Assembly (NCBI GenBank): GCA_964555875.1
Contig: CAZKUD010000004.1
Location: forward strand, 3,580 to 67,579
Direction: 5' to 3'
Source: an uncultured archaeon
Lineage (GTDB): Archaea; Aenigmatarchaeota; Aenigmatarchaeia; QMZP01
DNA length: 64,000 nucleotides
The notes under the pieces were generated by a model. It had not been told where the DNA came from. It made no database searches and saw nothing but the letters and a program-made list of their open reading frames with translations. Below, in pieces: positions 2,264 to 60,100 of the stretch. Each line of letters starts with the position of its first letter. Within the stretch, counting starts at the first letter, position 1. Position numbers and translations under genes: made by a program.

Positions 2264-2338
2264 GGCCGCAGTGGTGTTAATGGTTAGCATGTGGGACTGT
2301 GGATCCCTTGGTCCGAGTTCGAGTCTCGGCTGCGGCCC
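2264..2338 (+). tRNA. tRNA-His (anticodon GUG) with G-1, no encoded CCA
   Basis: Acceptor GCCGCAG/CUGCGGC, extra 5' G opposite discriminator C, anticodon loop CUGUGGA, T-arm CCGAG-TTCGAGT-CTCGG. Confidence 0.8.
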
Positions 2339-2360
2339 TTCCTCTTTCTGAGAGAATGAA

Positions 2361-2560
2361 TGCGGGGGGAGAGATTTGAACTCTCGAAGGCGCTAAGCCA
2401 CAGGATGTCCTATCATCGTTCCTTCCGGAACTCGATACACTTAAGTGACCTTAAGTTTGGCAGCCTTGCTTGTTGCAAGCATAGCACCTGCCCCTTTGAC
2501 CATTCCCGAGCCTTCCCTTTGGCTGAAGCCTTTGGAAAGGCTTCTCGGGAACCCCCGCTT
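2361..2560 (-). tRNA. Intron-containing class II tRNA (Leu-like; a CUUAAGG heptamer would fit a UAA anticodon loop). Spans about 200 nt, so it must carry one or more introns, possibly one in the D-loop region.
   Basis: Minus strand reads 5' GCGGGGGTTCCCGAG ... GGCTTAGCGCC (variable arm) ... CGAGAGTTCAAATCTCTCCCCCCGCA 3'. Acceptor halves are perfectly complementary, the T-arm is GAGAG-TTCAAAT-CTCTC, and the 5' end closely resembles archaeal tRNA-Leu. Internal hairpins (GAAGCCTTTCCAAAGGCTTC, CACTTAAGTG) are consistent with intron bulge-helix-bulge structures. Confidence 0.45.
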
Positions 2561-2615
2561 ATAGAGAAATTGTCCTGCCTTGTTTAAAAGGTTCTTTCAG
2601 GCACTTGGAACGGTT

Positions 2616-2819
2616 TTACTTCTTCTCAGAGAGGGTGTCGACCCTCTGCTCGAGCAGGGCCAGGCTGCCGGAGATGTCCTCCAGCATTATGGCCAACTTG
2701 TCCACCCAGGCGGCCACTATCTTCACGTCAAGGCTGTCCGCCTTGTCGTTTATCTCCTGCCTGAGCGCCCCCAGGTCGCTCTTGAACTCCTCGAATGATG
2801 TTATTGCCATAAGCATCAC
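2616..2819 (-). CDS. Small coiled-coil protein (67 aa), start overlaps trpS stop
   Basis: ORF directly downstream of trpS with a 4-nt overlap. Heptad-like sequence. No family recognised. Confidence 0.4.
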   Translation of the reverse strand: MMLMAITSFEEFKSDLGALRQEINDKADSLDVKIVAAWVDKLAIMLEDISGSLALLEQRVDTLSEKK

Positions 2820-4603
2820 TTGATGAACTTGCCCACCAGCTTCTTGGCCTTCTCCCTCTTCTTCTGGTGCTCTGTAAGGAACCTTGTCAGCAGTTCAGCG
2901 CACTCCTTCTTGCACTCCCCGCAAAGGCGCTTACCTTTCTTGCACTCCTCCCTCACCTTCTGGAGGTGCTTGTCATCCCTTGCCAGGTGGTAGGCGAACA
3001 TGTCGTAGACCGTGCACACGTCAGGGTCTGCGCCCCTCTTCCTCTGCTCGTCAGCGTTGCCCCTCCCGCCCGTGAAGGCGGCTGATAGCTTCTTGGCCGC
3101 CGCCTTCGGGGGGTCGGAAAGGGCTATATGGGAGCCCGGGTCAGAGCTTGCCATCTTGCCTCCCTTGAGGCCTTTCATGAACATGTGGTAAGTGGACGAG
3201 GGCGGGATGAAGCCGAACTCGTCCTTCACCCTGTTGGCTATGTCCCTCGTGAGCCTGAGGTGGGGGTCCTGGTCTATACCCACAGGCACCACCACAGGCG
3301 CCTTCTTCCCTTCGAACTCGGGAAGCATGGGGTGCAGGATGTCAGCCACCTGCGTCATTATGGAGGTTATCTTGCCGGGCGAAAGGTCTCCATATATGGA
3401 CTTCATCTCGTTCATGGTGGGCTTCTTGGACACTATGCCAATCAGCCTGTAGTAGGCGTTCGCCTTCCTGTGGTCGGAGTGCCTGTCGCTCTGGAAGTAG
3501 AAGTCCACGTTCTCCGGCTTCAGGCCGAGGGCTATGTAGTTGAGCAGGTACTCGTTTATCGCGACCTCCTTCAGCTCCTTGAATGTGCATTTCCTCATGT
3601 TATAGGCCTCTATGTCGGCCACGCAGAGGTATACCCTGGCCCCTATGCTCTGGTAATAGACTATCTGGTCAGCCAGCATCTTGTGGCCGAAATGGAACTT
3701 GCCTGAGGGCATCAGGCCCGTCATCATTGACCAGGGCTTGCCTGACTTCACGGCGTCAGCTATGTTCTTGAAGTCCCTGTGCCCGAAAACTATCCCCCTC
3801 TTCATGAGCGGGTGGGGATCAGGCAGCCTGTTAGACATCGGCTTGAACTTGCTTATGCCAAATTCTTCTAACAGCTTGTCGTAGTCCCTTATCTTCTGCT
3901 CCCCCCAGGGGTTTATCCTCTCTGCTGAAACGATGCCTGTCTTGACCTCCTTCCCGAGTATGTGGAGCTCGGTCTCGCCTGGCCTGCCCTTTCCCATGGC
4001 AGCCATCCTGGCGGCGTCCTTCAGGCAGTTCTTTATCCTGGCGTCCTTCACCCCCGGGACGTAGAATGCGAAGTATGCACAGTTCTTCGTCTTCCCTGTT
4101 ACTTTTGTCCTCAGCGACTGGCCCTCAAGGTACGTCCCTATCACGCCGCCTCTGTCTTTCACCACAACATCGCCCTGCTCGAGCGTGACCGTGTCGCCGG
4201 CCATGTTGGTGAACTCGTCCCCCTCCATGGCCTGGTCAACAGTGAGCGCGCCGTCCATCCTGTCGCTGTCCATCACGCCCATCAGCACCAGGTGCTTGAG
4301 CTCTGCCAGCAGCATGGCGTCCACCATCGGGGACAGGGTAGGTATGCCCTTTCCCTTGAGTACGGCCTTCACTCCCTCCAGTATGGGGAAGGGCCTGTCA
4401 TGGCGGCCGAAGAACTTGTCGTAGGCCTTTATGATGTCCACCTTCTCCCAGTTCCTGTACTCCTTCTTGACTATCCTCTCCACAGTGCTCCTCTCGTCCC
4501 TGAGCTCCCTGGACCCTGTGTTGACTGAGCCCTTCACCTCGACCAGGCCCAGACGCATGGTCGGATAGCGCTCCTTTATCCTCTGGGAAAACTGAACTTC
4601 CAT
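2816..4603 (-). CDS. trpS: Tryptophanyl-tRNA synthetase with an N-terminal B3/4-like domain (PheRS-beta editing-domain fold) of about 220 aa
   Basis: Class I HIGH motif GKFHFGHKML. KMSKS variant GGKMASSD typical of archaeal/eukaryotic TrpRS. N-terminal region LSPMVDAMLLAELKHLVLMGVMDSDRMDGALTV...GDEFTNMAGDTVTL resembles B3/4 domain consensus. 595 aa against about 380 aa for plain TrpRS. Confidence 0.8.
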   Translation of the reverse strand: MEVQFSQRIKERYPTMRLGLVEVKGSVNTGSRELRDERSTVERIVKKEYRNWEKVDIIKAYDKFFGRHDRPFPILEGVKAVLKGKGIPTLSPMVDAMLLAELKHLVLMGVMDSDRMDGALTVDQAMEGDEFTNMAGDTVTLEQGDVVVKDRGGVIGTYLEGQSLRTKVTGKTKNCAYFAFYVPGVKDARIKNCLKDAARMAAMGKGRPGETELHILGKEVKTGIVSAERINPWGEQKIRDYDKLLEEFGISKFKPMSNRLPDPHPLMKRGIVFGHRDFKNIADAVKSGKPWSMMTGLMPSGKFHFGHKMLADQIVYYQSIGARVYLCVADIEAYNMRKCTFKELKEVAINEYLLNYIALGLKPENVDFYFQSDRHSDHRKANAYYRLIGIVSKKPTMNEMKSIYGDLSPGKITSIMTQVADILHPMLPEFEGKKAPVVVPVGIDQDPHLRLTRDIANRVKDEFGFIPPSSTYHMFMKGLKGGKMASSDPGSHIALSDPPKAAAKKLSAAFTGGRGNADEQRKRGADPDVCTVYDMFAYHLARDDKHLQKVREECKKGKRLCGECKKECAELLTRFLTEHQKKREKAKKLVGKFIK

Positions 4604-7247: not shown

Positions 7248-7925
7248 ATGAAGTTCCTCCGGCTTCCCGAGCCCCTGAAGGGCCTCGTAAAGGGCCTGGA
7301 GCACGGGGCGCTGACCAACATATACGGCGGCCCCGGCACCGGCAAGACCAACTGCTGCATCCTGGCCGCAGTAGAGGCGGTAAAGGGGGGCGGGAAGGTC
7401 ATATACATGGACACAGAAGGCGGCTTCTCTCCGGAGAGGCTACGGCAGGTTGCCGGGAACCCCTCTTCTATATTAAAGAGCATAATCCTGGTGGAGCCCA
7501 AGACACTGAAGGAGCAGAGCAGGATGATAAGGGATTTGGAGAAGACTGATGCCGGCCTCATCATAGTGGACTCCGTCGTTGCGCTCTACAGGCTGGAGTA
7601 CACCGACCCCAAGGTGGAGGTCCTGGAGGCATCCAGGGAGCTCTCCAGGCAGCTGGCAGACCTTTCGAACATAGCTAGGGAAAGGGGCATACCTGTCCTG
7701 GTCACGGCCCACACGTTCAAGAACTGGGACACCGGCGAGAACGAGGTGATAGGCGGCAACGTGATGAAATACTGGTCCAAGGCCATAGTGTTCCTGGAGA
7801 GGACCGGGAGGACATCAGAAAGGAGGGCCACCATAACCAAGCACAGGCACATGCCTGAGGGGGGCTCTGTCAAGTTCGAGATAGTGCAGGAAGGCATAAG
7901 GCCCTCCGGCTTCAGGATTTTTTGA
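7248..7925 (+). CDS. radB: DNA repair and recombination protein RadB (RecA/RadA paralog)
   Basis: Walker A GGPGTGKT, about 225 aa, RecA-like core without N-terminal HhH domain. Euryarchaeal hallmark. Confidence 0.8.
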   Translation: MKFLRLPEPLKGLVKGLEHGALTNIYGGPGTGKTNCCILAAVEAVKGGGKVIYMDTEGGFSPERLRQVAGNPSSILKSIILVEPKTLKEQSRMIRDLEKTDAGLIIVDSVVALYRLEYTDPKVEVLEASRELSRQLADLSNIARERGIPVLVTAHTFKNWDTGENEVIGGNVMKYWSKAIVFLERTGRTSERRATITKHRHMPEGGSVKFEIVQEGIRPSGFRIF

Positions 7926-10167: not shown

Positions 10168-11226
10168 ATGTTCAAGGTTGCGGTGAAGGAAGAGCTGGAA
10201 AGGATGAGGGAGATACTGGACACCAAGGGGGATAAGATGCTCTTCACGCACAGGGACGCCGACGGGATATGCTCCGGCGCCCTGCTGCTCAAGTTCTTCC
10301 CTGACTTCGAGTGCGTCATAAGGGAGGGCCCCAGGATAGAGGACGAGCTGGTGGAGGAGATAATAGACAAGGCGCCCAAGGCGATTGTTTTCCTGGACCT
10401 GCCGGTCGACCAGGAGCACAAGAAGATGGAGGAGATAGAGAAGGCGCTGCCTGACACCAAGATTCTGATAGTGGACCACCACATACCCGAGAAGAACCTG
10501 AGTAACGGCAATGTGATGCACATAAACCCCATGTTCAGGGAGAACGTCTACCTGCCTGCAAGCTTTCTCGTCTACCAGATACTCGAGGGCATGAAGCTGG
10601 AGGTGAAGAAGTACATATGGATAAGCTGCATAGGCGTGATAGGAGATTACGGCTTCGAGGACTGCAAGGAGCTGATAGAGACATGCAGGAAGGACTACCC
10701 CGAGCTGCTATTCGGCCACCCCCTGATGTCCAAGATGGGGCAGGGCGCCCAGCTCATATCGGCTGCCATCACCCTGAAGGGCCAGCCGGGCGCCAAGAAG
10801 GCCCTGAGGGCCCTCGTCAGGGCTGACGAGTTCGATGACTTCGCCATGGACAGGGAGATAATAAGCTGGTTCGACACGGTCAGGAAGGAGATAAACAGGA
10901 TACTCCTGGACTTTGACGAGAACAAGGATGTCAACAGGGAGAAAGGGGTGATAATATACGAGCTCAAGTCAAGGCTCAACATAGCGTCCGTCATATCGAC
11001 TATCCTGGCCCAGCAGAACCAGGATGACGTGATAATAATAAGGAAGGAGACCCCCAGGGGCGAATGGAAGCTCTCCATGAGGGACCAGAAGGGGAGGGTC
11101 AACCTCGGACAGCTCACCAAGAAGGCCGTCAAGGGTATAGGCTCGGGGGGAGGCCACGAGAAGGCGGCGGGCGCCCTGGTGACAGACTGGGAGAAGTTCA
11201 AGAAAAGGCTTATTTCCGGGATCTGA
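10168..11226 (+). CDS. DHH/DHHA1 family phosphoesterase (NrnA/RecJ-like)
   Basis: DADG, DHH and GGGHEKAAG (DHHA1 GGGH) motifs. Confidence 0.8.
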   Translation: MFKVAVKEELERMREILDTKGDKMLFTHRDADGICSGALLLKFFPDFECVIREGPRIEDELVEEIIDKAPKAIVFLDLPVDQEHKKMEEIEKALPDTKILIVDHHIPEKNLSNGNVMHINPMFRENVYLPASFLVYQILEGMKLEVKKYIWISCIGVIGDYGFEDCKELIETCRKDYPELLFGHPLMSKMGQGAQLISAAITLKGQPGAKKALRALVRADEFDDFAMDREIISWFDTVRKEINRILLDFDENKDVNREKGVIIYELKSRLNIASVISTILAQQNQDDVIIIRKETPRGEWKLSMRDQKGRVNLGQLTKKAVKGIGSGGGHEKAAGALVTDWEKFKKRLISGI

Positions 11227-11866
11227 GCACCACAAGCATATGGTCTTTCTCGAAAGGGTCCAGGACAACTTTCTCCACAAGCTCCAGCTCGGATGTGAGC
11301 TTCTTGACGCATTCCCTGAAGACCTCTTTAGGCTCCTTCACCACGTCCATCGAGCGTGACTTTATGGCTATCACTGCCAGGCCCCCCGGCCTGAGCTTGG
11401 CCCTGCAGTTCCTTATCAGTATCTCTGGCTGGTCGTTCGTGGCCACGTCCTGGTAGACCAGGTCAGCGGTCTCTATCCATTCGTAATCATTGGGCTTCCT
11501 GGCGTCTGCCAGAATCGGCACTATGTTGCCCCTCTTCTCTGCGACAGGGTTCAGTTCCCTGAACGCCCTCTCGGATATCTCCACAGCGTATATTACGCCC
11601 TCCTTTCCCGCTATGTCAGAGAAGAAGCTCGGTGTGTAGCCCTGGGCAGCTCCCAGGTAGAGTATCTTCATGCCCTCGCCCACAGGGAATGTCTTCAGCC
11701 CCTTGGCCACGGCGGCGGCCAGCTTTGACCTGGTGGGGTCCCATACCCTGTATTCCTCTTCCCCTATGGTGACCAGCTGTTCGGTGTAGCTCCTGAAGCC
11801 GGGGACCAGGTTCTTCGTGAGCATCTGGCCTTTCGCCTTCCAGACGCCCGGGAATATCTGCTTCAT
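11210..11866 (-). CDS. flpA: Fibrillarin-like rRNA/tRNA 2'-O-methyltransferase
   Basis: YRVWDPTRSKLAAA signature and SAM-MTase motifs. Nop5 is not adjacent. Confidence 0.9.
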   Translation of the reverse strand: MKQIFPGVWKAKGQMLTKNLVPGFRSYTEQLVTIGEEEYRVWDPTRSKLAAAVAKGLKTFPVGEGMKILYLGAAQGYTPSFFSDIAGKEGVIYAVEISERAFRELNPVAEKRGNIVPILADARKPNDYEWIETADLVYQDVATNDQPEILIRNCRAKLRPGGLAVIAIKSRSMDVVKEPKEVFRECVKKLTSELELVEKVVLDPFEKDHMLVVLRSRK

Positions 11867-32922: not shown

Positions 32923-35067
32923 GTGGTTGGGATAGCCGGTAAGTTTTACATCACGACAGCCATTGACTACGTCAATGCGAAGCCGCACCTTGGGCATGCG
33001 TACGAGAAGCTGGCAGCTGACACGATAGCCAGGTGGCACAGGCTTAAGGGGGAGGACGTGCTCTTCCTGACAGGGACAGACGAGAACGCCCAGAAGAACG
33101 TGCAGGCTGCAGAGAAGGCAGGCAAGCCTGTCAAGGAGTTCATAGACGATGTCGTGAAGAACTTCCTGAACCTGTGCAGGGTGTACAACATCTCATATGA
33201 CGATTTCATCAGGACCACAGAGGACAGGCACCACCAGGTGACCAGGTCCCTCTTCCAGAAGATGCACGACAGCGGGGACATCTACAGGGGGCATTATGAG
33301 GGCATATACTGCTACGGCTGCGAGGCCTTCTACCTGGAGAAGGACCTGAAGGGCGGATGCTGCCCTGTGCATAAGACCAAGCCTGTGGTCATAAAGGAGG
33401 AGGCGTACTTCTTCAAGCTGAGCAAGTACGAGAAGAGGCTGCTGGACTTCTACAGGAAGCTGCCTGACAACGTGCTTCCGAAGAGCAGGAAGAACGAGAT
33501 GCTGAACAGGATAGGAGAGGGCCTGAGGGACCTCTGCGTGAGCAGGCAGAAGGTGGAATGGGGGGTGAAGGTGCCTTTCGATGAGAACCACAGGGTGTAC
33601 GTCTGGTTCGATGCCCTCATCAACTACATATCAGCACTGGGGTGGCCTAAAGGGGAGAGGTTCAGGAAGTACTGGCCGGCTGACATACACATGATAGGCA
33701 CCGATATCAACTGGTTCCATTCCGTCATATGGCCCGCCATGCTGATGTCGGCGGGGATAGAGCCCCCTAAAACAGTGTTCGTGCACGGCATGATTACGTC
33801 AGAAGGCGAGAAGCTAAGCAAGACCAGGGGCATAATAGTGGACCCATTCGACCTGGTCGAAAGGTATGGGCTGGACCAGGTGCGTTACTTCCTCCTAAGG
33901 GCAGGCCCGTTCGGCGAGGAGATAGACTACACTGAAGAGGCGATAGTGGGCAGGATAAACGGCGAGCTTGTGGCCGACTTGGGCAACCTACTGAACAGGG
34001 CCGTGACACTGGCAGAGAAATACAAGGGAGAGATAAAGGGCAAGCCTGAGCTGGACAGCGGCCTGGGACTTGAGAAGCTCTCCCTCCACATGGACAGGCT
34101 CGAGCTGCACCATGCGCTGGAGGAGCTCTGGAGGTACATGGGCATCTGCAACAAGTACATCAACGACAGGGAGCCCTGGAAGCTGGAAGGGGATGAGCTC
34201 TCGAACGTGCTCTACAACCTGCTCGAGGCCCTGAGATGCATAGCGATTCTCATAACCCCCTTCATGCCAGGGACAGCCGGGAAGATGAACGAACAGCTTG
34301 GGGTGAAGCCGGGCAAGCTGGCTGACTGCAAGTTTGGGCCCTGGGAGGGCAGTGTCAGGAAGGGCGGGCACCTGTTCGAGAAGGTCGAGTTCAAGAAGAA
34401 GGAAGGGAAGGCGAAGGAGATATCGGTCAACGTCACCCCTGAGGCCCAGAAGCTCGGGATAAAGGTCAGGGCAGCCGTAATAACGGGCGTGAAGGTGAAG
34501 AGGAAGCAGTCAAGCCTGGAGAAGCTCAAGAAGGACGAGGTGGGGCTGACAGACCTGGACGCCATAGGGAAATCCAAGGAGATCGAGGGCTACAGGCTGC
34601 TTTACGAGAAGGTCGGGGCCAAGGTGGAGAATCCGGTTGCCCACCTTGCCGGCATAGTCAAGAAGGCAGGCAAGCTGCCCACCATCAACACTGTGGTCGA
34701 TTCCTATAATATAGTGGCCCTCAGGAAGCGCCTGTCAGTGGGTGCCCATGACCTGGACAGGATACAGGGCAACGTCAATTTCAAGATAACCGACGGCAAG
34801 GAGTCCTGGACTCCCCTGGGGGAGGACAGGCCAAAGGCTGTCCCGGAAGGCGAGTATGCCTGCGTGGACCAGGCCAAGGTGCTGTGCAGGATGGACATCA
34901 AGCAGGGAGACCAGACCAAGATAACCGACAGGACGAAGAACATATTTGTCTATGTCCAGGGCAACCCCAACACGCCTGACGACTATCTCAAGCAGGCCCT
35001 GGAGGAGATAATAACCAACATCACCCGGTTCTGCGGCGGGAAGGCCGTGATTTCTGAGCCTATATAA
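32923..35067 (+). CDS. metG: Methionyl-tRNA synthetase with a C-terminal B3/4-like domain
   Basis: HIGH (KPHLGHAYE) and KMSKS (KLSKTRG) motifs, MetRS zinc knuckle CYGCEAF...CCPVH. C-terminal 200 aa (INTVVDSYNIVALRKRLSVGAHDLDRIQGNVNF...) resembles the PheT B3/4 domain rather than the usual EMAP-like tRNA-binding domain. Confidence 0.85.
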   Translation: MVGIAGKFYITTAIDYVNAKPHLGHAYEKLAADTIARWHRLKGEDVLFLTGTDENAQKNVQAAEKAGKPVKEFIDDVVKNFLNLCRVYNISYDDFIRTTEDRHHQVTRSLFQKMHDSGDIYRGHYEGIYCYGCEAFYLEKDLKGGCCPVHKTKPVVIKEEAYFFKLSKYEKRLLDFYRKLPDNVLPKSRKNEMLNRIGEGLRDLCVSRQKVEWGVKVPFDENHRVYVWFDALINYISALGWPKGERFRKYWPADIHMIGTDINWFHSVIWPAMLMSAGIEPPKTVFVHGMITSEGEKLSKTRGIIVDPFDLVERYGLDQVRYFLLRAGPFGEEIDYTEEAIVGRINGELVADLGNLLNRAVTLAEKYKGEIKGKPELDSGLGLEKLSLHMDRLELHHALEELWRYMGICNKYINDREPWKLEGDELSNVLYNLLEALRCIAILITPFMPGTAGKMNEQLGVKPGKLADCKFGPWEGSVRKGGHLFEKVEFKKKEGKAKEISVNVTPEAQKLGIKVRAAVITGVKVKRKQSSLEKLKKDEVGLTDLDAIGKSKEIEGYRLLYEKVGAKVENPVAHLAGIVKKAGKLPTINTVVDSYNIVALRKRLSVGAHDLDRIQGNVNFKITDGKESWTPLGEDRPKAVPEGEYACVDQAKVLCRMDIKQGDQTKITDRTKNIFVYVQGNPNTPDDYLKQALEEIITNITRFCGGKAVISEPI

Positions 35068-44212: not shown

Positions 44213-46927
44213 ATGGGCGCCAATCTCCCACCCAATGCACTTGCCCTGCTGAAGCAGAGGTACCTCCTGAAGGATGACAGGGGAAGGGTCAGGGAGACGC
44301 CTGAGCAGATGTTCAGGAGGGTCGCAAGGGCTGTCGCCAAGGCCGAGGGCAGGAACGCGGGGAGGTTCGGGAAGGAATTCTTCGGCATGATGAGCAGGCT
44401 GGAGTTCCTGCCAAACAGCCCGACCATGTTCAATGCGGGCACCAAGCTGGGCCAGTTGTCGGCATGCTTCGTGCTGCCCATAAACGATTCGCTGGTCAGC
44501 ATATTCGACGCGGTCAAGCACACTGCACTGATAGAGCAGAGCGGGGGCGGGGTCGGCCTGTCCTTCTCGAGGATCAGGCCGAAGGGCTCAATGGTGAAAT
44601 CTTCCAGGGGCCAGGCCAGCGGGCCTGTCTCGTTCATGAGGGTGTTCGACACTGTCACAGGCGTGATAAACGCGGGCGGCAAGAGGAGGGGCGCCATGAT
44701 GGGCGTCCTGGACGTGGGCCATCCCGACATAATGGATTTCATAACATCCAAGGAAGGCTATGACGTGCTCAGCAATTTCAACATATCGGTGGCGGTCACA
44801 GATTCCTTCATGGAAGGCGTCAGGAAAGGGAACAGGAAGGTATGGGACGCCATAGTGGAGGGCGCATGGAAGGGCGGGGACCCCGGGCTGCTTTTCATGG
44901 ACGAGATAAATAGGGGGAACCCGACCAGGAAGCTGGGAAAGGTGGAGACCACCAACCCCTGCGTTCCTTCCCATACATGGATAATGACAGGCGGCGGGCC
45001 GAGGCTGGTGGACGATATTATAAACAACAGTGTTGGCATAGGCGTCAATGGCTGCTCCTACCAGACCGCAGGTTTCTTCAGGACGGGGAGGAAAGAGGTG
45101 TTTAAGATTACAACCAAAGAGGGCCTGGAGGTGGAGGCAACTGCAAGCCATCCCTTCCTAAAGGCCGAAAAGATAACCAGATACAAGACGTATCCCAAAT
45201 GGACGGCTCTTGGCGAGCTGAAGCGCGGGGACAGGCTCGTTTTGAGCGAGCATAATGGAAATAGATGGGACGGGGATTTGTCCAAGGATGATGGTTACCT
45301 CTTGGGCCTGCTCTTTGGCGACGGCACCATGACAAAGAGGAATGCCATACTCTACTCCTGGTCAACAAGCAAGGGGGACGAAGGCGTAAGGAAGGCTGTC
45401 ATGGATATAGCCAAAAAGATAAGGCACAGAAGGGACTTCATAGGATGGTGTTACAACAAAAGAACTAAGAGGTATTCACTGAGCCTGGCATATATTGATG
45501 GTCTAATCCGGAGGCTGGGTGTAGGAAGAAAGATAATAAATGGCCCCATTGAAAGGGAATCTTATGATTTTTACGTTGGGTTCATAGGGGGCCTGTTTGA
45601 TGCCGATGGCTCTGTGCAGGGCGACCAGAGGAAGGGCGTTTCCATAAGGCTCTCCCAGAGCAATGTGCCAAACCTGAAAGCCGTACAGAGGATGCTATTA
45701 AGATTGGGAATAATGTCAAAATTATACCAAAACAGGAGGCCTGGGGGCTTAAAAAGACTGCCAGACGGGCGCGGTGGAAAAAAGGATTACAAAATAAAGG
45801 CCCAGCACGAGCTTGTCATATCAAACAGGGGTGTCCTTAAGTTCTTGAATTTGATAGGGTTCAGGAACATTAAAAAGAAGGAGAGGCTTGATGCCCTAGT
45901 TAAGGGCTACAGGAGAACTATTAACAAAGATATGTTTGTGGCCACAATAGAAAGCATCGTCCCCCTTGGGATTAAGGAGGTCTTTGACATTAATGTCCCG
46001 GTTGCGCATTGTTTTGACGCAAATGGATTCTTAGTTCACAATTGCGGGGAAGCCGTGCTGCATCCCTATGAGAGCTGCAACTTGGGCAGCATAAACCTCA
46101 CCAGGATGGTAAGCGGAGGGAAGGTGGACTGGGAAAGGCTCAGGAAGACTGCCAGGCTGGCGGTAAGGTTCCTGGACGACGTGATAGACGTCAACAGGTA
46201 CCCGATGCCCCAGATAGAGGCCATGACCAAGGCCAACAGGAGGATAGGCCTGGGGGTGATGGGCTTCGCGGACATGCTGATAATGCTGGGCATACCGTAT
46301 GACTCTGAAGAGGCCCTGAGGACGGCAGGGGAGCTCATGAGGTTCATAACCGAAGAGTCCCACAGGATGTCAGAGGAGCTGGCAAAGGAGAAGGGACCGT
46401 TCAGGAACATGGCCAAGAGCTCCTGGAAGAGGCCCATGAGGAACGCGACCACCACCACAATAGCGCCAACCGGCAGCATATCCATCATAGCCGGGGTGTC
46501 CTCAGGCATAGAGCCCCTCTTCGCTGTCAGCTACGTTAGGAGCGTCCTGGGGGGCAGGAAGATGGCAGAGACCAACCGGCTTTTCAGTGAGATGGCAAAG
46601 AGCAGGGGGTTCCACTCCAAGAAGCTCATGTCAGAGGTTGCCAGGAAGGGCACTGCCAGGGGCGTGAAGGGGATCCCGAAGGACGTCCAGAGGCTGTTCG
46701 CCACGGCCCTGGAGATAAGCCCGGAATGGCACGTAAGGATGCAGGCCGCCTTCCAGAAGCACACCGACAATGCTGTGTCTAAGACCGTCAACTTCCCGAA
46801 GGGCGCCAGCCGGTCAGACATAGACAGGGTCTTCATGCTGGCGCACAGGCTGAGGTGCAAGGGGATAACAGCATACAGGTACGGCTCCAGGAAGGAGCAG
46901 GTCCTGACATGCGGGGAGTGTGAGTGA
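44213..46927 (+). CDS. nrdJ: Adenosylcobalamin-dependent ribonucleotide reductase (class II, NrdJ-like) interrupted by one intein
   Basis: Extein motifs TTNP|CGE at the active-site Cys and C-terminal redox pair CGECE. Extein is about 543 aa after removing the 361-aa intein. Confidence 0.75.
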   Translation: MGANLPPNALALLKQRYLLKDDRGRVRETPEQMFRRVARAVAKAEGRNAGRFGKEFFGMMSRLEFLPNSPTMFNAGTKLGQLSACFVLPINDSLVSIFDAVKHTALIEQSGGGVGLSFSRIRPKGSMVKSSRGQASGPVSFMRVFDTVTGVINAGGKRRGAMMGVLDVGHPDIMDFITSKEGYDVLSNFNISVAVTDSFMEGVRKGNRKVWDAIVEGAWKGGDPGLLFMDEINRGNPTRKLGKVETTNPCVPSHTWIMTGGGPRLVDDIINNSVGIGVNGCSYQTAGFFRTGRKEVFKITTKEGLEVEATASHPFLKAEKITRYKTYPKWTALGELKRGDRLVLSEHNGNRWDGDLSKDDGYLLGLLFGDGTMTKRNAILYSWSTSKGDEGVRKAVMDIAKKIRHRRDFIGWCYNKRTKRYSLSLAYIDGLIRRLGVGRKIINGPIERESYDFYVGFIGGLFDADGSVQGDQRKGVSIRLSQSNVPNLKAVQRMLLRLGIMSKLYQNRRPGGLKRLPDGRGGKKDYKIKAQHELVISNRGVLKFLNLIGFRNIKKKERLDALVKGYRRTINKDMFVATIESIVPLGIKEVFDINVPVAHCFDANGFLVHNCGEAVLHPYESCNLGSINLTRMVSGGKVDWERLRKTARLAVRFLDDVIDVNRYPMPQIEAMTKANRRIGLGVMGFADMLIMLGIPYDSEEALRTAGELMRFITEESHRMSEELAKEKGPFRNMAKSSWKRPMRNATTTTIAPTGSISIIAGVSSGIEPLFAVSYVRSVLGGRKMAETNRLFSEMAKSRGFHSKKLMSEVARKGTARGVKGIPKDVQRLFATALEISPEWHVRMQAAFQKHTDNAVSKTVNFPKGASRSDIDRVFMLAHRLRCKGITAYRYGSRKEQVLTCGECE
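44960..46042 (+). mobile_element. Intein with LAGLIDADG homing endonuclease, inserted at the NrdJ TNP/CGE site
   Basis: Begins with Cys (CVPSHTW), ends HN followed by Cys. Two LAGLIDADG blocks LLGLLFGDG and FIGGLFDADG. Locally lower GC. Confidence 0.8.
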
Positions 46928-53776: not shown

Positions 53777-54184
53777 TCATCCCTTTCTGATTTCCCGTAT
53801 GATCCTGCTAGTGCTGTATCCAGGAAGCCTTTTCTTTATCCTGACAACCTTGCATTTTATGCCCATTGCCTTCAGGCGTTTTCTTATTTCATTATCGTCC
53901 TGGTCGAAGCCCAAGGCTATCACGTCTGGTTTCTCCTCCCTTACCGCCTTCATCATGTCTGACGGGTGGCCCACCCTCACCTTGTCGACGAACCCCAGGC
54001 TGCCCACCATATCCTTCCTGTCCTTTGCAGAGAACGAGAGCCTGCCGCTCTTTCTGCCGGCTGTCCTGTCATGGGCCACCACCACCACCAGGCTGGTGCC
54101 CAGCCTCCTGGCGGCCTTCAGGAAGAATATGTGCCCCGGATGGAGCAGGGAGAACACGCCGCCGACAAGGACCTTCCTTCCCAT
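53777..54184 (-). CDS. ribL: Cytidylyltransferase-family nucleotidyltransferase, archaeal FAD synthase RibL-like
   Basis: GGVFSLLHPGHI (HxGH) motif, 135 aa. Similar to archaeal RibL/PPAT-type enzymes. Confidence 0.6.
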   Translation of the reverse strand: MGRKVLVGGVFSLLHPGHIFFLKAARRLGTSLVVVVAHDRTAGRKSGRLSFSAKDRKDMVGSLGFVDKVRVGHPSDMMKAVREEKPDVIALGFDQDDNEIRKRLKAMGIKCKVVRIKKRLPGYSTSRIIREIRKG

Positions 54185-57100
54185 CAGCCCCTCCTTACCG
54201 TGAGCGCGTATCCGGAACCGGTCTTGTTGCTCTCCAGGATAAGCTTGTGGGTCCCTGGGTTGAGTATCAGGTCGCTCTGCACGTCTATGTTGCCGTAGCC
54301 CAGCAGGCTCTTGACCGTGCTGTAAAGTCCCAGCCCGTAGCCGAAGCTCGGGGAAGGCTTCTCCAGGAACTGCTGGGACTTTATCAGGCCCATCTTCTCC
54401 TCTATCGCCCTCCAGTCACCCTTCGTGAAGACCAGGAAGGCCAGCGGGTTGTCCTTGCCCAGGGCGACTGTCATGGTGTGGGAGGAGGGGGTCTTGTCGT
54501 ATCTCAGGAACTCGGGATTCTGGTAGGCGAAGACCAGGCCGTAAAGGACCCCGCTCCCGTAGCTGGCGAGGTAATAGCTGGGCGGGCTGTTCCAGACAGT
54601 CCCCCACTGGCTGGCTGGCTTGGCGCCTGCCCCGGGCACGTAAACCATGTTGCTGGTGTTGTTGATGGTCAGGCTTATGGTCAGGTTGCCCACGGCCGCG
54701 CCTGACACTGTCAGGGTGTCGTTCTCTGACTTGCTGTCATACCCTCCCCTATGGCATGTGACGTTCCAGCCGTATGTCCCGTGGCTGCTGAATGACCTGC
54801 TGAAGGTGTAAAGGGCTGTGGGTATGCTGTAGGACATCTGGTACTGCCCGTCGCTGAAGCTTATGTTGCAGCTGCTGCTCGTTAGCGCGCTGCCGCCTGA
54901 GGTGTAGTTGGCGTAGAAGCCGACAGACTGCCCGACCCTTATGGTCTGCCCGCCGCCCGCAGGGTCTCCGCTGTCCCATATGCTCAGTAAGGACGCCTGG
55001 GTGTCGCATATGTTGTCTATCCCGTCAGCGTCATCGTCCTGCCCTGTGTTAACCTGGTTCGGGCACATGTCGCACACCATGTTCGGGTCCCCGTAGAGGC
55101 TCGTGTTCACGCCCTCTGTCCAGCCGTCCTGGTCGAAGTCTGCCTTGGCGCAGGTCCAGCCCGTCCCCCTGCTGGTCAGGCTGTCGCAGACATAGAAGAC
55201 CTTCTTGTAAGAGCTCACCTGGTCGCCGTCCTCGTCCGTCACGTTCACGTAGGCCCTGTACATGCCATCAGAGTTGGGGGCGGGCACGGTCCCGTTGCAC
55301 TCCACGGTCGAGCCCGAGCCCCCTGTCTTCGTCAGGGTCCCTGACCAGACAACCGAGCCAGAGGAGTCCTCTATGTAGGCGTTGCATGCAGCGGACTGGA
55401 AGTTTCCGCTGTCCGCTGTCCTGAAGCTGGCTCCTATCAGCGCGCCGTCAGTGCTGCGGTAGAATGGCTCTGTCATGTTTATGGACGCTGCTGTCGGGAC
55501 AGGCATGACGTTTATCCCTATCGTCCTGCTCCCCCCATTGGTGCCCGTGTTGTCTGCGCCGTCCGTTGCGTTGGCGGAGAGCTGGTAGCTCCCGTCATCG
55601 TCAGTGTAGGTGGTGGCGTACAGGCAGTTCCCGTCGCTGGACTGCACGACCGTCCCGTCAAGGTCGAAGGCGCACCTGCATATGCCTGACGGGTCGCTGG
55701 ACGGTATCGCCCTGTACCTTATGGTGCCCCCGTATGGTATGTTCACGAAGTTCGAGGAGTTTATCGGCCCGACCTCTACTGAGGAGACGGTCGGCGGCGT
55801 GTTCTCATAGACTGTCGGGCTCCTGGTGCCTGCCCCATTGTCCGGGGAGCCGTCCGAAAGCGAGTTGGTTATGGAGATGGAGTATGTCTTTGCCTGTGGC
55901 GAGGACACCCCTCCACAGTTCAGGGTGACATCAAACCCGTTCAGCGGGTTCCCTGCTCCCACCTGGCCCGGGTCATGGTCTATCCTTCCGACCTGGTCCT
56001 GGGTGGACACGTACCTGAGCTTGTTGGCGTTGGTGCCGCTCATCGTGCAGTTGGAAGCGTTGTACGGGAAGTACCTGGTCGGGTCTGTGGCGTCGCCCAG
56101 GATTATGGAGATCGAATTGTAGCTGCCTGAGCCCACCACCCTTACCGTGTAGTTGGTGAAGACATAGTGCCTCTGCAGGTGTCCCACGGAAACCGTTGTC
56201 CCGCCTACGGCTGACGGGCTTGTCGTGTAAGGTATGGTGGTGCAGCCCACAGTCGACCAGCCCTGGCTCGGGCACGCGCCCACGCCGTAGCAGTCGCTGT
56301 CGGCGCAGTCATAGTAGCCGTCGGCGTCATTGTCCAGGCCGTCCGTGCAGCTGGTTTCGGTCCCGTATTCGCACCATCCCACTCCGTTGCAGTCCACGTC
56401 AGCGCAGTCTGCCCCTCCCTGCGCGTCATTGTCGAAGCCGTCGAAGCAGCTGGTTTCGGTCCCGTATTCGCATGCCTCCCCGTTGGCCGTGGAGCCTATC
56501 TCCCCTGAGCAGTTTATGTCCGCGCAGTCTGTTATTCCTGTCGGCATCATGTGGTCATTGTCCAGGCCGTCCGAGCAGGATGACCAGGTGTAGTTCTCCT
56601 CTCCCGGGCAGGGGCCGCATGAGCCGAACTTCCTGTTGCAGTCAGGGTCGGTGCAGTCAGTGCCGCCGTTGGGCCAGCCCTGGGAGTTGTCCCCGTCGTC
56701 ATCATAGTTGTTGTTGCAGAACTGGTAGTGCTGGGCGAGGTTGAACTCGTATGGGTAGCAGACCTCGTTCGGGTTGGCCGGGTTGGCCACCCCCAGGCAG
56801 TCCACGTCAGCGCAGTCTATGTTGGCCGCAGGACCTGTGTATGTCATGGAGGGGTTGTCCAGGTCATTGTCTATGTTGTCGAAGCACTGGCTGTCATTAA
56901 CCTGCCCGTACCTGTTGTGCCTCTCATTGGTCGGGCACGTGTCGGTCCCGTTCGTCTGGCCCCTGCAGTCATAGTCCCTGCAGTCCGAGCCGCCGGTCTG
57001 GCTGCAGCTCCTGCTGTTGGAGCCGTCGTCATAGTCATTGTTTATGCCGTCGAAGCACCAGCCAGCCAAATTGCTCTCGTTGGACGGGCAGGGGTCTGAA

Positions 57101-60100
57101 GTGGACGTGCCTCCCTTCTGCCAGCAGACTGTCGGGTCGCAGCAGTCTATGTAGTCGGTGTAGCCCGTGCTGTACGGGGTGGATGCGTCCTGGTCATTGT
57201 CGAACAGGTCTGCGCATGCTGTCCTCCAGGGGTAGAATGACTCATGGGTGGCGTTGCTGAAGCCAGCCCCCTCCTGGTACTCGCACAGGTTGGTCATGTC
57301 CTGGTAGTCGCCGGGCTTCAGGTCGCAGTCGGCGTCCGCGCAGTCGTACCCGTCCTGGGCGTCGTTGTTGAAGCAGTCGTAGCAGGTGAGCTCCAGGCCG
57401 TACTCGCAATAGGCGTTCCCTGAGGTGCAGTTTGTGCCGCCTATGAACCCGTCGCAGTCCTGGTCAGCGCAGTTGGGGTAGTAGTCCAGGTCGTTGTCGG
57501 GCACGTATCCGCTCACTGCCGGGTCAGAGCATGGCGCGGATATTGTCCCTGACATCTCCTCTGTCTCGTTCCAGTTGGTGGGTGCCGAGGAGCTTACTAT
57601 TATGGGCACGTCGTAGATTATCAGGTTGGAGCCGTACTGAGTTATGGAGACCGTTATGTTGTGCTCGCCAGAAGACCATCCGCTGGTCAGGTTGACGTAC
57701 ATGACCATGTCTATGTCGCCTGTGTAGCCTGATGCGTCCTCCGCCTTGTAGGTCACGTTCTGGCCGCCTGACTGGGCTATCTGGTCGCTTGTGAGGTTAT
57801 GAGAGCCCGGTGCAGGGTACTTGCCGTACGAAACGAATCCGTCATCGAGGTCTGTCAGGGCGAAGGCTATCGGCTGTCCGGTGGAGTAGCTGCCCCCGTC
57901 GAACCTGAACTTCAGCGTGCCGCCGTTCTGGACGTACCTGGTGTAATAGTATGTCGTGGAGTGCCCGCCCACTGTCTTGGTCTCCCAGCATATGCCGTTC
58001 GAGCATGTCCCCCCGAACGGGTCGTCGACTGGCGTATGGTTGGCGCAGGAGTAGGTTATGCCTCCGCAGTACTGGTCACCGCAGTCCGACAGGACGTTCC
58101 CGTCATTGTCCTGGCCGTCATGGCACCAGCCCTCTATGTTGACGCCCCTGCTCATTGCCACCGCGAAGGCTACGTCACCGGAGTAGTCGCACCTGTAGGT
58201 GTTGTTGAAGAACACCTTGTCGAACTGGAGGAAGCAGTCGAGCGCCCTGTAGGCGTCGTCGCCTATGTCGTCGAACCTGTTCCAGGTGTTCCCGTGGACG
58301 AATATCTTCTTGCCCAGCCAGGGCTCCCTCCCGTAGTCTGTAGCGTTGGTGTACAGGAGCCCCCTCCCTGAATTGTACAGGGAGCAATTGTGCACCCACC
58401 AGGGAGAGGTCTTGTTGTAGGAGTCCGAGAAGCTCATGTTGTGGTTAAGGTATTCCTGGCCGTTGCTCACGCTGCTGCCAAGCGTCTTGTTCAGGTAAAG
58501 CATGCTGCCGTTGGACATCTCTATCTCGCACTCGAGTATGCTGCCCGAAGAGGCGCTGAAGTTTTGGAATGTTATGTTGAAGTCGAACTTGTGCGTGCCC
58601 GGTATGGTCGCATTATAGGGCTCGTAAACGCCCTCCGGGAAGCTTATGTTGAGCCAGGCCACCACAGTCGTCAGGTTGGCTGGGTACGGGCCCAGGTCGT
58701 TGACGAACCCTGTCACGTTGGCCCCGTTGGTTGCGTTGTAGGGATACTGTGAGCCGTAGTCCCCGAAACCGTCGCCGTCAGTGTCGAATATCTGCAGGGT
58801 GCTGAGGTCGTCCCACGTGTTGCCCTCGTGTTGGTAGCCCTGGGGCTTGGATGTGTTTGTCCTGTAGAACATGTTGCCTGAAACTGAGCCAGCATGGTAG
58901 CCAATGCTTCCGGTGAAATTGTTGGAGTAGAGCACGTTGCCGACCGAGTTGTCTGTCAGGTTTGCCCCTATCTGGTTTTCCAGGAATGTGTTGTTGCTGA
59001 TGGTGTTGTTTTCAGCGCTGTCCAGGTGTATTCCTATCTGGCTGCTGTCGCGCACGGTGTTGAGGCATACTGAGTTGTTGTCTGCTGAATCCAGCAGTAT
59101 GCCAACAGGGTTCCTTTCCAAGGCGTTGCCGGAAACCGTGATGTTTTCAGCGCTGTCCAGGTAGATGCCGGACTGGCTGCTGTCGCGCACGGTGTTGAGC
59201 CGGATTGAGTTGAAAATTGAGTTGTAGTCATAGATGCCTATGTAATTGTAATCCGCTGTGTTGTTGTACACAGTAATGTTCTCGGAAGTGTCCAGGTAGA
59301 CGCCCTGGGCGTTGGAGCTTACATTATTCTGTTCCAGCGTGCCGTTGTTTGACAGCTCGACAATAACGCCTGAATTGCTGTTGTTGTACAGGGTGTTCTC
59401 CCACACATGGCTGGAGTTGCTGTCATGCAGCATGATGGCATCAGTGAAGTTGAGTATGGTGCAGTTGAAGATGGAAACGTTCTCCTGGCCTGTCACGTTT
59501 ATGGCTATCCCGGAGCCGTCTCCCCTCAGGATGTAGTCGGCGCAGTCGAACGTGATGTTGCTGGCGTTTATTATGAAGCAGTCCCCTGTCACGTTCAGGT
59601 CCTGTATCATGGTGGTGTCGTTGTTTATGAAGCCGCAGCTCAGGTCGCAGACGTTGTCTATCCCGTCAGCGTCGTCGTCCCTTCCCGTGTTCACCTGGCC
59701 CGGGCACATGTCGCACACGAAACCCTGCCCGTACATGCTTATGGTGACGCCCTCTGTCCAGCCGTCCTGGTCGAAGTCTGCCTTGGCGCAGGTCCAGCCC
59801 GTCCCATTGCTGGCCAGGCTGTCGCAGACATAGAATACCCTGGATTCGGAGCTCACCTGGTCGCCGTCCTCGTCCGTTATGTTTACGTAGACCGTGTACA
59901 GCATGTCGATGTTCGGCACTGGTATGGTCCCGTTGCATTCAGCTGCCCCTGAGCCCAGGCTGGTCTTCGTCAGGGTGCCGGAGGAATATACACTGCCCAT
60001 GGCGTCCTGGATGTAATAGTTGCAGGTCCCCGGGAAGCTCCCGTCGCTGGAGGTCTGGAAGCTGGCGCCGAAGCCCATGTCCTCTGTGCTGTAGAAGAAG

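Follow-up and report, generated by a model that had tools for sequence, protein, structure and literature searches.

A stretch of 64,000 nucleotides (nt) from an uncultured archaeon (contig CAZKUD010000004.1, positions 3,580 to 67,579; referred to here as the window) contains, near one end, what appear to be the two termini of a leucine transfer RNA (tRNA) gene, separated by far more sequence than a tRNA requires. This raises the question of whether the termini belong to a single gene and, if so, how a mature tRNA could be obtained from it. In an initial annotation of the sequence, an acceptor stem, a T-arm and a class II variable arm were recognized across a span of about 200 nt, and a tRNA-Leu gene with one or more large or non-canonical introns was proposed. 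All of these elements are present, reading 5' to 3' on the minus strand, and the interval 2558..2361 is interpreted here, with a probability of about 0.9, as a tRNA-Leu(UAA) gene of the Aenigmatarchaeota (DPANN archaea) that carries three introns of the bulge-helix-bulge (BHB), protein-spliced type. This interpretation is based on sequence analysis, and comparison with related genes contributes most of its weight.

Gene Structure and Spliced Product

The complete gene spans 198 nt, including the discriminator A at 2361. Positions in the precursor (pre-tRNA) are numbered such that p1 corresponds to window position 2558, a window coordinate being equal to 2559 - p. Read on the minus strand from 2558 to 2361, the gene begins with GCGGGGGTTCCCGAG and ends with GAGAGTTCAAATCTCTCCCCCCGCA. 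The acceptor stem is a perfect 7-bp helix formed by GCGGGGG (2558..2552) and CCCCCGC (2368..2362), the T-arm GAGAG-TTCAAAT-CTCTC lies at 2385..2369 (-), and the class II variable region comprises 15 nt (TGGCTTAGCGCCTTC). As listed in Table 1, four exons are interrupted by introns at positions 15/16, 30/31 and 37/38, with the anticodon UAA at 2453..2451 (-). A split or permuted tRNA gene is not supported, the four exons being collinear on one strand within the 198 nt.

Removal of the three introns in silico leaves an 84-nt class II product (GCGGGGGTTCCCGAGTGGTCAAAGGGGCAGGACTTAAGATCCTGTGGCTTAGCGCCTTCGAGAGTTCAAATCTCTCCCCCCGCA), which is called tRNA-Leu(taa) by ARAGORN, with a 7-bp acceptor stem, a long variable arm and A73, and which is collinear with the spliced orthologues and with intron-less tRNA-Leu genes of other archaea. 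The suspicion that the D region is interrupted by an intron outside the canonical 37/38 position has also proved correct, with intron 1 falling at 15/16 in the D-loop. A scan of the 64-kb window for acceptor pairs accompanied by a T-arm returned two genes only, the tRNA-Leu and a tRNA-His, so that the interval described here is the sole tRNA-Leu(UAA) gene found within the window.

The assembly and the identity of the host have been supported by the neighboring gene for tryptophanyl-tRNA synthetase (TrpRS; 2816..4603, -). The identical TrpRS protein sequence occurs on nine metagenome contigs from JGI and ENA, and the tRNA region is unchanged on the two of these contigs that were fetched, which come from independent JGI and ENA assemblies; identical sequence in separate assemblies speaks against an artefact of assembly. 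Among GTDB species representatives, the closest is a metagenome-assembled genome (MAG) named 'Candidatus Aenigmatarchaeota archaeon' (L014), with 82-84% nucleotide identity across TrpRS, tRNA-Leu, tRNA-His, Ogg and NUDIX, and the best named TrpRS homologues are labelled Aenigmarchaeota or Aenigmatarchaeota. Taken together, the L014 match and the TrpRS labels indicate that the host, whose genomic G+C content is ~56%, is a DPANN archaeon.

Bulge-Helix-Bulge Motifs at the Intron Boundaries

In a BHB motif, the central helix joins two 4-nt segments, one ending two positions before the 5' cut and the other three positions before the 3' cut, and cleavage occurs after the second nucleotide of each 3-nt bulge. 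A motif search along these lines, which had been proposed with the initial annotation, yielded consistent motifs at all three junctions and allowed a cloverleaf to be assembled. Motif classes are named here as in published descriptions (PMC5829648, PMC4090602), and cuts within bulges are marked by a vertical bar. The motif of intron 1 has a central helix CCCG/CGGG, bulges AG|A and AA|U and a 9-bp inner helix; its outer helix consists of two G-U pairs at best or is absent, which places it in the relaxed HBh' type. Intron 2 is bounded by a central helix GGCA/UGCC with bulges GG|U and AA|A and with h and h' helices of 3 bp each, the inner helix running on into a 6-bp hairpin. For intron 3, the central helix is CUUA/UAGG, the bulges are AG|G and AC|A, the inner helix is the 3-bp UCA/UGA, and the outer helix is the anticodon stem itself, which cannot be completed until intron 2 is gone.

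When the junctions were kept fixed and the sequence of each intron was shuffled, a motif with a 4/4-paired central helix and an inner helix of at least 3 bp arose by chance with frequencies of 1.6e-4 for intron 1, 2.9e-4 for intron 2 and 1.5e-3 for intron 3. The small hairpins that had initially been taken to fit BHB structures do exist, GAAGCCTTTCCAAAGGCTTC at p15-34 and CACTTAAGTG at p112-121, but they are not the BHB elements: the former is an alternative local fold inside intron 1, while the latter is the complement of the anticodon loop carried by intron 3. Three other solutions near the canonical position were considered, namely an anticodon loop placed in the second CTTAAG copy, a mini-intron of 12 nt at p110-121 and G38 junctions at p110-112/q154-156, and each was rejected because the central helix was unpaired or the product was not a tRNA. 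A search for sequence resembling intron 1 elsewhere in the 64-kb window found none.

Table 1. Features of the tRNA-Leu(UAA) gene and of its immediate surroundings in the window.
Feature	Window position	Strand	Precursor position	Description
Exon 1	2544..2558	-	p1-15	Acceptor 5' strand GCGGGGG, U8 U9, D-stem 5' strand CCCG, A14 G15
Intron 1	2503..2543	-	p16-56	41 nt; D-loop, position 15/16
Exon 2	2487..2502	-	p57-72	D-loop remainder UGGUCAA, D-stem 3' strand AGGG, G26, anticodon stem C27-G30
Intron 2	2457..2486	-	p73-102	30 nt; anticodon stem, position 30/31
Exon 3	2450..2456	-	p103-109	A31, C32 U33 U34 A35 A36 G37
Intron 3	2407..2449	-	p110-152	43 nt; canonical position 37/38
Exon 4	2361..2406	-	p153-198	A38, anticodon stem 3' strand UCCUG, variable arm, T-arm, acceptor 3' strand, A73
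CUUAAGU element in intron 3	2439..2445	-	p114-120	Perfect 7-nt complement of A31-G37
K-turn-like module (speculative)	2411..2435	-	p124-148	UCGA (D'-like), GUUCC-GGAA-GGAAC hairpin, bulge GAU, GA-UA (C'-like)
TATA-box-like TTTTAAA (putative promoter)	2583..2589	-		25-31 nt upstream of the mature 5' end
tRNA-His(GUG)	2265..2338	+		Intron-less; ARAGORN; Rfam 53.7 bits
75-aa open reading frame (spurious)	2360..2587	+		Antisense to the tRNA-Leu gene

Intron Positions Among Related Genes

The window gene was compared with five further orthologous gene versions and with a related gene (L011), seven gene versions in all, the six additional ones having been recovered through a DNA scan and through the neighbors of TrpRS and Ogg homologues. 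The canonical 37/38 intron is present in 7/7 versions, and the remaining three positions are occupied in different combinations (Table 2). Following synteny from the TrpRS homologues P0002, P0005 and P0006 did not lead to a tRNA-Leu.

Table 2. Intron lengths (nt) at four positions in the seven versions of the tRNA-Leu(UAA) gene.
Gene version	15/16	30/31	37/38	59/60
Window	41	30	43	none
L014 (= L043)	none	34	43	none
L041 (= L042)	none	none	57	38
L019	14	29	32	>100 (contig end inside)
L047	66	none	52	none
L044	none	none	32	(gene 3' end cut)
L011	none	none	48	none

When the window precursor is aligned globally with that of L014, a single 41-nt gap opens, located exactly at p16-56, along with a gap of 4 nt confined to the apical loop of intron 2; 154 of the 157 aligned positions are identical, the three differences lying in the D-loop, the variable loop and a bulge of intron 3. 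The window, L019 and L047 agree in the position and bulges of the D-loop intron, whose central helix is CCCG/CGGG in the first two and CCCA/UGGG in L047 and whose inner helix changes from AGCC.../...GGCU to ACCC/GGGU. At 30/31, the 29-nt intron of L019 has a hairpin stem of wholly different sequence that is nevertheless paired, and the T-loop intron of L041 (59/60) folds as a textbook hBHBh' motif. Uninterrupted genomic DNA is also found across each junction in one relative or another: junction 1 in L014, L041 and L044, junction 2 in L041 and L044, and junction 3 in L003, L005, L009 and L026-L040, exon 4 being identical to the uninterrupted genomic CAGGACTTAAGATCCTGTGGCTTAGCGCCTTCGAGAGTTCAAATCTCTCCCCC in L026-L040. 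Insertions and deletions that fall exactly at the predicted splice sites, together with covarying helices, support both the intron boundaries and the BHB helices. The four complete orthologous genes (4/4) are all spliced in silico to a collinear 84-nt tRNA-Leu(UAA), and the L011 gene to an 86-nt tRNA-Leu(UAA) with two extra D-loop nucleotides.

Sequence conservation extends beyond the exons. Between the window and L014, the exons are identical at 82/84 positions, with both differences in loops, and introns 2 and 3 at 72/73, compared with 45.5% identity at four-fold degenerate sites of TrpRS and 54.7% at those of Ogg. Introns 2 and 3 may therefore be under strong constraint over their whole sequence, or else the gene may have moved recently between the two lineages; either would account for the figures. 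The adjacent tRNA-His genes (window 2265..2338 (+), L014 2394..2466 (-)) are 73% identical, in contrast to 98% for the tRNA-Leu precursors, and the tRNA-His of L041 and L042 is identical to that of the window, a contrast which suggests the replacement or transfer of one tRNA gene at this locus. Upstream of the gene, the proximal ~35 nt are conserved with respect to L014 and more distant sequence is not. An A/T-rich box at about 25-31 nt upstream and a T-rich trailer downstream accompany all copies of the gene, with a similarly placed box and a conserved proximal leader in L014, L041, L047, L019 and L044, and the TTTTAAA of the window is regarded as a putative archaeal promoter.

Concerning the history of the introns, a recent gain of intron 1 was considered, given its absence from the 84%-identical L014, and was dropped upon finding the same site and bulges in L019 and L047, which make ancestral presence followed by repeated precise loss the more parsimonious course. 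The simplest reading of the set as a whole would be an ancestor with many introns (four, as in L019), from which introns were then precisely lost on several occasions. Non-canonical and multiple introns are common in the clade, examples being the T-loop intron of L041 and the tRNA-His gene adjoining Ogg in L023 (GCA_038999435.1, Aenigmatarchaeota; 7691..7868 (+)). The latter apparently has two introns, one of ~12 nt just after the anticodon and one of ~85-95 nt in the T-loop, and is not called by ARAGORN. Another Aenigmatarchaeota genome (L016, NC_groundwater_689) has an interrupted tRNA-Leu-like gene of 155 nt at ~7550..7705 (+), with the same acceptor and T-arm, a probable GAG anticodon and insertions in the D region and near 30/31; an attempted exon assignment for this gene gave no resolved exons.

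Tangential observations were made on more distant tRNA-Leu(UAA) genes. A scan of metagenome contigs for the variable-arm/T-arm pattern matched a different lineage and gave no close orthologue; it returned 14 copies with a Micrarchaeota-like D-loop intron, as well as one gene with a long canonical intron (L035). Genes of the Micrarchaeota-like type (L026-L034, L036-L040, L003, L005 and L009) have a short D-loop intron of the form GGTC|TGGC-NNN(N)-GCCACAGAAAAA|TGCG, in which the TGGC/GCCA stem is invariant and the loop alone varies, and the tRNA-Leu exons of this lineage are identical to those of the window from the anticodon stem onward. Very long canonical introns have been noted in L035 (Ga0194120_10067241; ~240 nt) and in L013 (Altiarchaeales; ~105 nt), the latter intron being highly A/T-rich and repetitive.

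Precursor Folding and Proposed Splicing

Folding energies given here are model predictions at 37 C for naked RNA. Under constrained folding, the BHB conformers of introns 1 and 2 lie within ~2 kcal/mol of the minimum free energy (MFE) fold; for intron 1 the difference is 2.2 kcal/mol, and for intron 2 the local MFE fold is the BHB itself. In the precursor, the central (H) helix of intron 1 occupies the 5' strand of the D-stem, and that of intron 2 occupies G25-A28, which comprises the last 3' nucleotide of the D-stem, G26 and the 5' start of the anticodon stem; the outer helix of intron 2 would in addition occupy A22-G24. With these strands engaged by introns 1 and 2, neither the D-arm nor the anticodon stem could take its mature form before splicing.

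A plausible pathway would begin with an archaeal promoter, whose TATA-like box at -31..-25 would drive the transcription of a ~200-nt precursor. Pairing of the 3' end of each intron with the 4 exon nucleotides that immediately precede the 5' splice site would then leave two 3-nt bulges with 4 bp between them. Each bulge would be cut behind its second nucleotide by the archaeal splicing endonuclease EndA and the exons joined by an RtcB-type ligase, with the resulting 84-nt class II tRNA-Leu(UAA) finally gaining CCA. We infer transcription, EndA cleavage, ligation and the order of these steps from the DNA. Since the outer helix of intron 3 needs intron 2 to be gone, splicing is probably ordered, with intron 2 removed ahead of intron 3.

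Assessment of Alternative Explanations

A number of observations weigh against a functional gene with three introns. The unspliced gene is missed by ARAGORN, another check put forward with the initial annotation, whether or not the intron option is used, with tRNA-His alone being reported; when the window and the excised region were analysed with introns allowed up to 3000 nt and with lowered thresholds, only a poor tRNA-Ala was obtained, at the 80% threshold. Rfam searches at the gathering threshold and at E<=10 gave no minus-strand match. For intron 3, the BHB conformer is predicted to lie 10-17 kcal/mol above the MFE fold, because the anticodon loop ACUUAAG can pair perfectly with the intronic CUUAAGU. 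The BHB of intron 1 has no real outer helix, so a broad-specificity endonuclease would be needed, and no EndA or RtcB gene was found in the 64-kb window when its ~50 open reading frames (ORFs) were scanned against Pfam. ARAGORN is moreover permissive, accepting 160 of 5,542 alternative BHB-based splice products, and the 198 nt show no excess of generic BHB-like motifs over shuffled sequence (5 strict motifs vs 4.1 +/- 2.4). As neither this count nor the ARAGORN calls are discriminating, it is the comparative evidence that singles out the proposed solution. Lastly, the exact boundaries of intron 1 are ambiguous, a 39-nt register competing with the 41-nt register adopted here.

This other register (p17-55) would yield an 86-nt tRNA with an 11-nt D-loop (AGAAUGGUCAA). 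It makes use of the 3-nt bulge G15 A16 A17 seen in the MFE fold, has symmetric GAA/GAA bulges and an inner helix of 8 bp, and its product is likewise called tRNA-Leu(taa) by ARAGORN. Nevertheless, it has no outer helix pair, requires three pairs to open, and has a constrained energy of -85.3 kcal/mol vs -88.3 kcal/mol for the 41-nt register. The product of the latter is collinear with those of L014, L041 and L047 and matches the alignment gap exactly, and L019 and L047 carry its AG|A and AA|U bulges. The 39-nt register is accordingly judged to be unlikely.

The absence of calls by standard detectors, and an intron 3 BHB that is not the MFE fold, would also be expected of a decaying tRNA-Leu pseudogene into which unrelated sequence had been inserted three times and from which no functional tRNA is made. 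Such a history seems very improbable in view of exons that are 82/84 identical to those of L014 despite 45-55% identity at flanking four-fold sites, of BHB motifs that bound all three insertions and covary in relatives, and of a conserved promoter-like box, every complete version of the gene being spliced in silico to an intact cloverleaf. There is practically no likelihood that the region is an assembly chimera or that its plus strand codes for a 75-aa protein instead. An ORF starting with ATG does span the gene, and its dismissal as spurious in the initial annotation has been upheld: it has no Pfam match, is antisense to the perfect pair of acceptor stem and T-arm, and has its frame broken in L014 by a length difference of 37 nt, which is not a multiple of 3. 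A chimera is contradicted by the identical sequence in separate JGI and ENA assemblies. The tRNA-Leu(UAA) gene with three BHB introns thus remains the favored explanation.

A Conserved Element in the Canonical Intron

The canonical intron contains features that BHB splicing does not require. A CUUAAG element is found in this intron in 7/7 gene versions, as CUUAAGU in six of them and as CUUAAGA in L044, and in MFE folds CUUAAGU forms a 7-bp hairpin with the anticodon loop. CUUAAG being palindromic, the intron element is also a copy of the exon sequence. All seven versions share a common layout, consisting of CUUAAG(U), 1-3 nt, YYGA or UCGA, a short hairpin and NNU-GA, none of these features being demanded by the BHB. 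The stem of the hairpin covaries (GUUCC/GGAAC, GGGC/GCCC, GG/CC, GCU/AGC and GAUC/GAUC), with a plain loop in L044. This module fits a kink-turn (K-turn), in which a C helix is combined with a 3-nt bulge whose last nucleotide is U, with tandem G.A pairs and with a short NC helix. The arrangement is similar, too, to that of a guide sequence followed at once by an internal D'/C' motif. A K-turn pattern scan matched 5/6 independent canonical introns vs 4-10% of shuffles, using a pattern that had been defined after viewing the data, and the odds that the K-turn is real may be put as roughly even.

It could be proposed that the canonical intron is a functional module, in which CUUAAGU and the D'/C'-like K-turn bind L7Ae and possibly Nop5-fibrillarin, although this appears doubtful. 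Equally doubtful are the activities that might follow from such binding: the module could act as a minimal 'half' C/D ribonucleoprotein (RNP) guiding 2'-O-methylation of C32/U34 in cis, or as a protein-dependent conformational switch. The precursor might then be kept in a non-BHB conformer until refolding permits splicing, as with the box C/D intron of pre-tRNA-Trp, and a switch of this kind could order modification and the removal of the three introns. Evidence in favor includes the presence of the module at the same place in 5/6 independent canonical introns, with a stem that covaries and a bulge whose final nucleotide is U in every case, and the 72/73 identity of introns 2 and 3 to those of L014 vs ~50% at four-fold sites, which would reflect selection on function. 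In Pyrococcus, trans-acting C/D small RNAs (sRNAs) serve position 34 of tRNA-Leu(UAA) and tRNA-Leu(CAA), and the pre-tRNA-Trp intron is itself a C/D guide (PMC7994747, PMC5558902). A fibrillarin gene is also present in the window (11210..11866, -).

On the other hand, the N+5 rule predicts C32 as the target in the window, L014, L041 and L047 and U34 in L019, L044 and L011, so that the predicted position of methylation differs between lineages. There is a single D'/C'-like motif (UCGA ... AUGAUA) and no terminal C (RUGAUGA)/D (CUGA) pair, no Rfam C/D family is matched even at E<=10, and the guide duplex formed by CUUAAGU with A31-G37 amounts to 7 bp. In short introns, including that of the window, the C'-like UGA is the h'/H' strand of the BHB and is forced by complementarity to CUUA. 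Along with the post hoc definition of the pattern, the use of two closely related copies weakens the argument, as a recent gene transfer could also explain intron conservation. Since intron 3 lacks the terminal boxes, its interpretation as a complete box C/D RNA was rejected.

Neighboring Genes

The tRNA-His(GUG) gene noted as adjacent in the initial annotation is convergent with the tRNA-Leu gene and lies 22 nt from its 3' end. A second case of an ORF masking a disrupted tRNA gene has been found in L041 (1589..1711, -), where a gene caller's 40-aa ORF was placed over the two-intron tRNA-Leu. The only ORF separating TrpRS from tRNA-Leu in the window is one of 66 aa (2616..2819, -) that has no Pfam match, and the same interval in L014 (1900..2180), L043 and L041 contains an extra 92-aa MazG-like gene, indicating that the locus has been rearranged among close relatives.

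Two aminoacyl-tRNA synthetases in the window are fused to a B3/4 domain of the PheRS-beta type. The TrpRS is 595 aa long with an N-terminal B3_4 domain, a fusion found only in the closest ~8 homologues, others being ~370 aa long, and the methionyl-tRNA synthetase (MetRS; 32923..35067, +) has a C-terminal B3_4 domain. A class II-type ribonucleotide reductase large subunit is encoded at 44213..46927 (+) with an intein and a LAGLIDADG domain (Pfam Intein_splicing, LAGLIDADG_3), and a single 3,260-aa ORF at 54184..63966 (-) represents a giant protein such as DPANN genomes often encode.

Comparison with Known Systems

The structure of a BHB tRNA gene with multiple introns is already known; the present gene adds a case from the Aenigmatarchaeota, where such genes were to be expected and are poorly annotated. 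No paper describing tRNA introns in this group was found, and the finding is of specialist rather than general interest. The gene resembles the multi-intron genes of Thermoproteales in having three BHB introns in one tRNA, one canonical and two non-canonical. In Pyrobaculum islandicum, tRNA-Pro(UGG) has introns at 25/26, 37/38 and 56/57, and both 30/31 and 59/60 are among the listed non-canonical positions (PMC4090602). Intron content differs between close relatives in both cases, and the mosaic described here is reminiscent of the rapid intron turnover of Thermoproteales. In contrast to that group, which belongs to the Crenarchaeota, the host is a DPANN archaeon, the 15/16 D-loop position does not appear in the open-ended list of PMC4090602, and the 'intron transposition' signature of similar introns in different tRNA genes is not seen, with one tRNA-Leu locus per genome examined. 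The initial annotation had associated multi-intron tRNAs mainly with Thermoproteales and some uncultured lineages; the host is not one of the Thermoproteales but belongs to the DPANN archaea, for which disrupted tRNA genes have been reported (PMC5829648).

A close parallel is provided by pre-tRNA-Glu(UUC) of Methanopyrus kandleri, which combines a relaxed HBh' D-loop intron with a canonical intron (PMC5829648). The same combination of a relaxed D-loop intron with a poor outer helix and a strict canonical BHB intron occurs in the precursor described here. The canonical intron of the Methanopyrus precursor is likely removed first (PMC5829648), a precedent for ordered removal, whereas here intron 2 would be expected to leave ahead of the canonical intron 3. 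The two cases further differ in the tRNA and the lineage concerned and in the additional intron, at 30/31, of the present gene. The set of orthologues, with four positions occupied in different combinations over short distances, constitutes a natural series for the study of tRNA intron gain and precise loss, and bears on whether the removal of multiple introns from one precursor is ordered.

As in euryarchaeal pre-tRNA-Trp and the Pyrococcus C/D guides, an element complementary to the anticodon loop stands beside D'/C'-like K-turn signatures, and, as in the pre-tRNA-Trp intron, the guide and BHB conformers are mutually exclusive. The predicted targets (32 or 34) lie in the anticodon loop, as do those of the Pyrococcus tRNA-Leu C/D sRNAs, for which 34 is a reported target. 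The module differs from C/D guides in having one K-turn-like motif, no terminal boxes, a duplex of 7 bp rather than ~10-12, and an intron of 32-57 nt. If it is genuine, tRNA-Leu would join tRNA-Trp as a case of intron-borne RNA-guided modification, in a minimal, one-K-turn format.

Disrupted tRNA genes are also known from the DPANN archaea, ARMAN among them (PMC3239211, PMC5829648), along with broad-specificity EndAs of the ARMAN epsilon2 and L3-loop alpha4 types; DPANN EndAs bearing the L3 loop have been associated with disrupted tRNA genes (PMC5829648). The present gene shares with them a DPANN host and introns that are both non-canonical and multiple. It has been remarked in the literature that the tRNA sets of DPANN genomes are incompletely predicted, which fits the failure of ARAGORN and Rfam at this locus; genes of this type would be one reason why such sets look incomplete, and disrupted tRNA genes lead to spurious ORF annotation, both here and in L041. 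The motifs in the orthologue set range from strict hBHBh' to relaxed forms lacking an outer helix, and thereby bear on endonuclease recognition in DPANN archaea.

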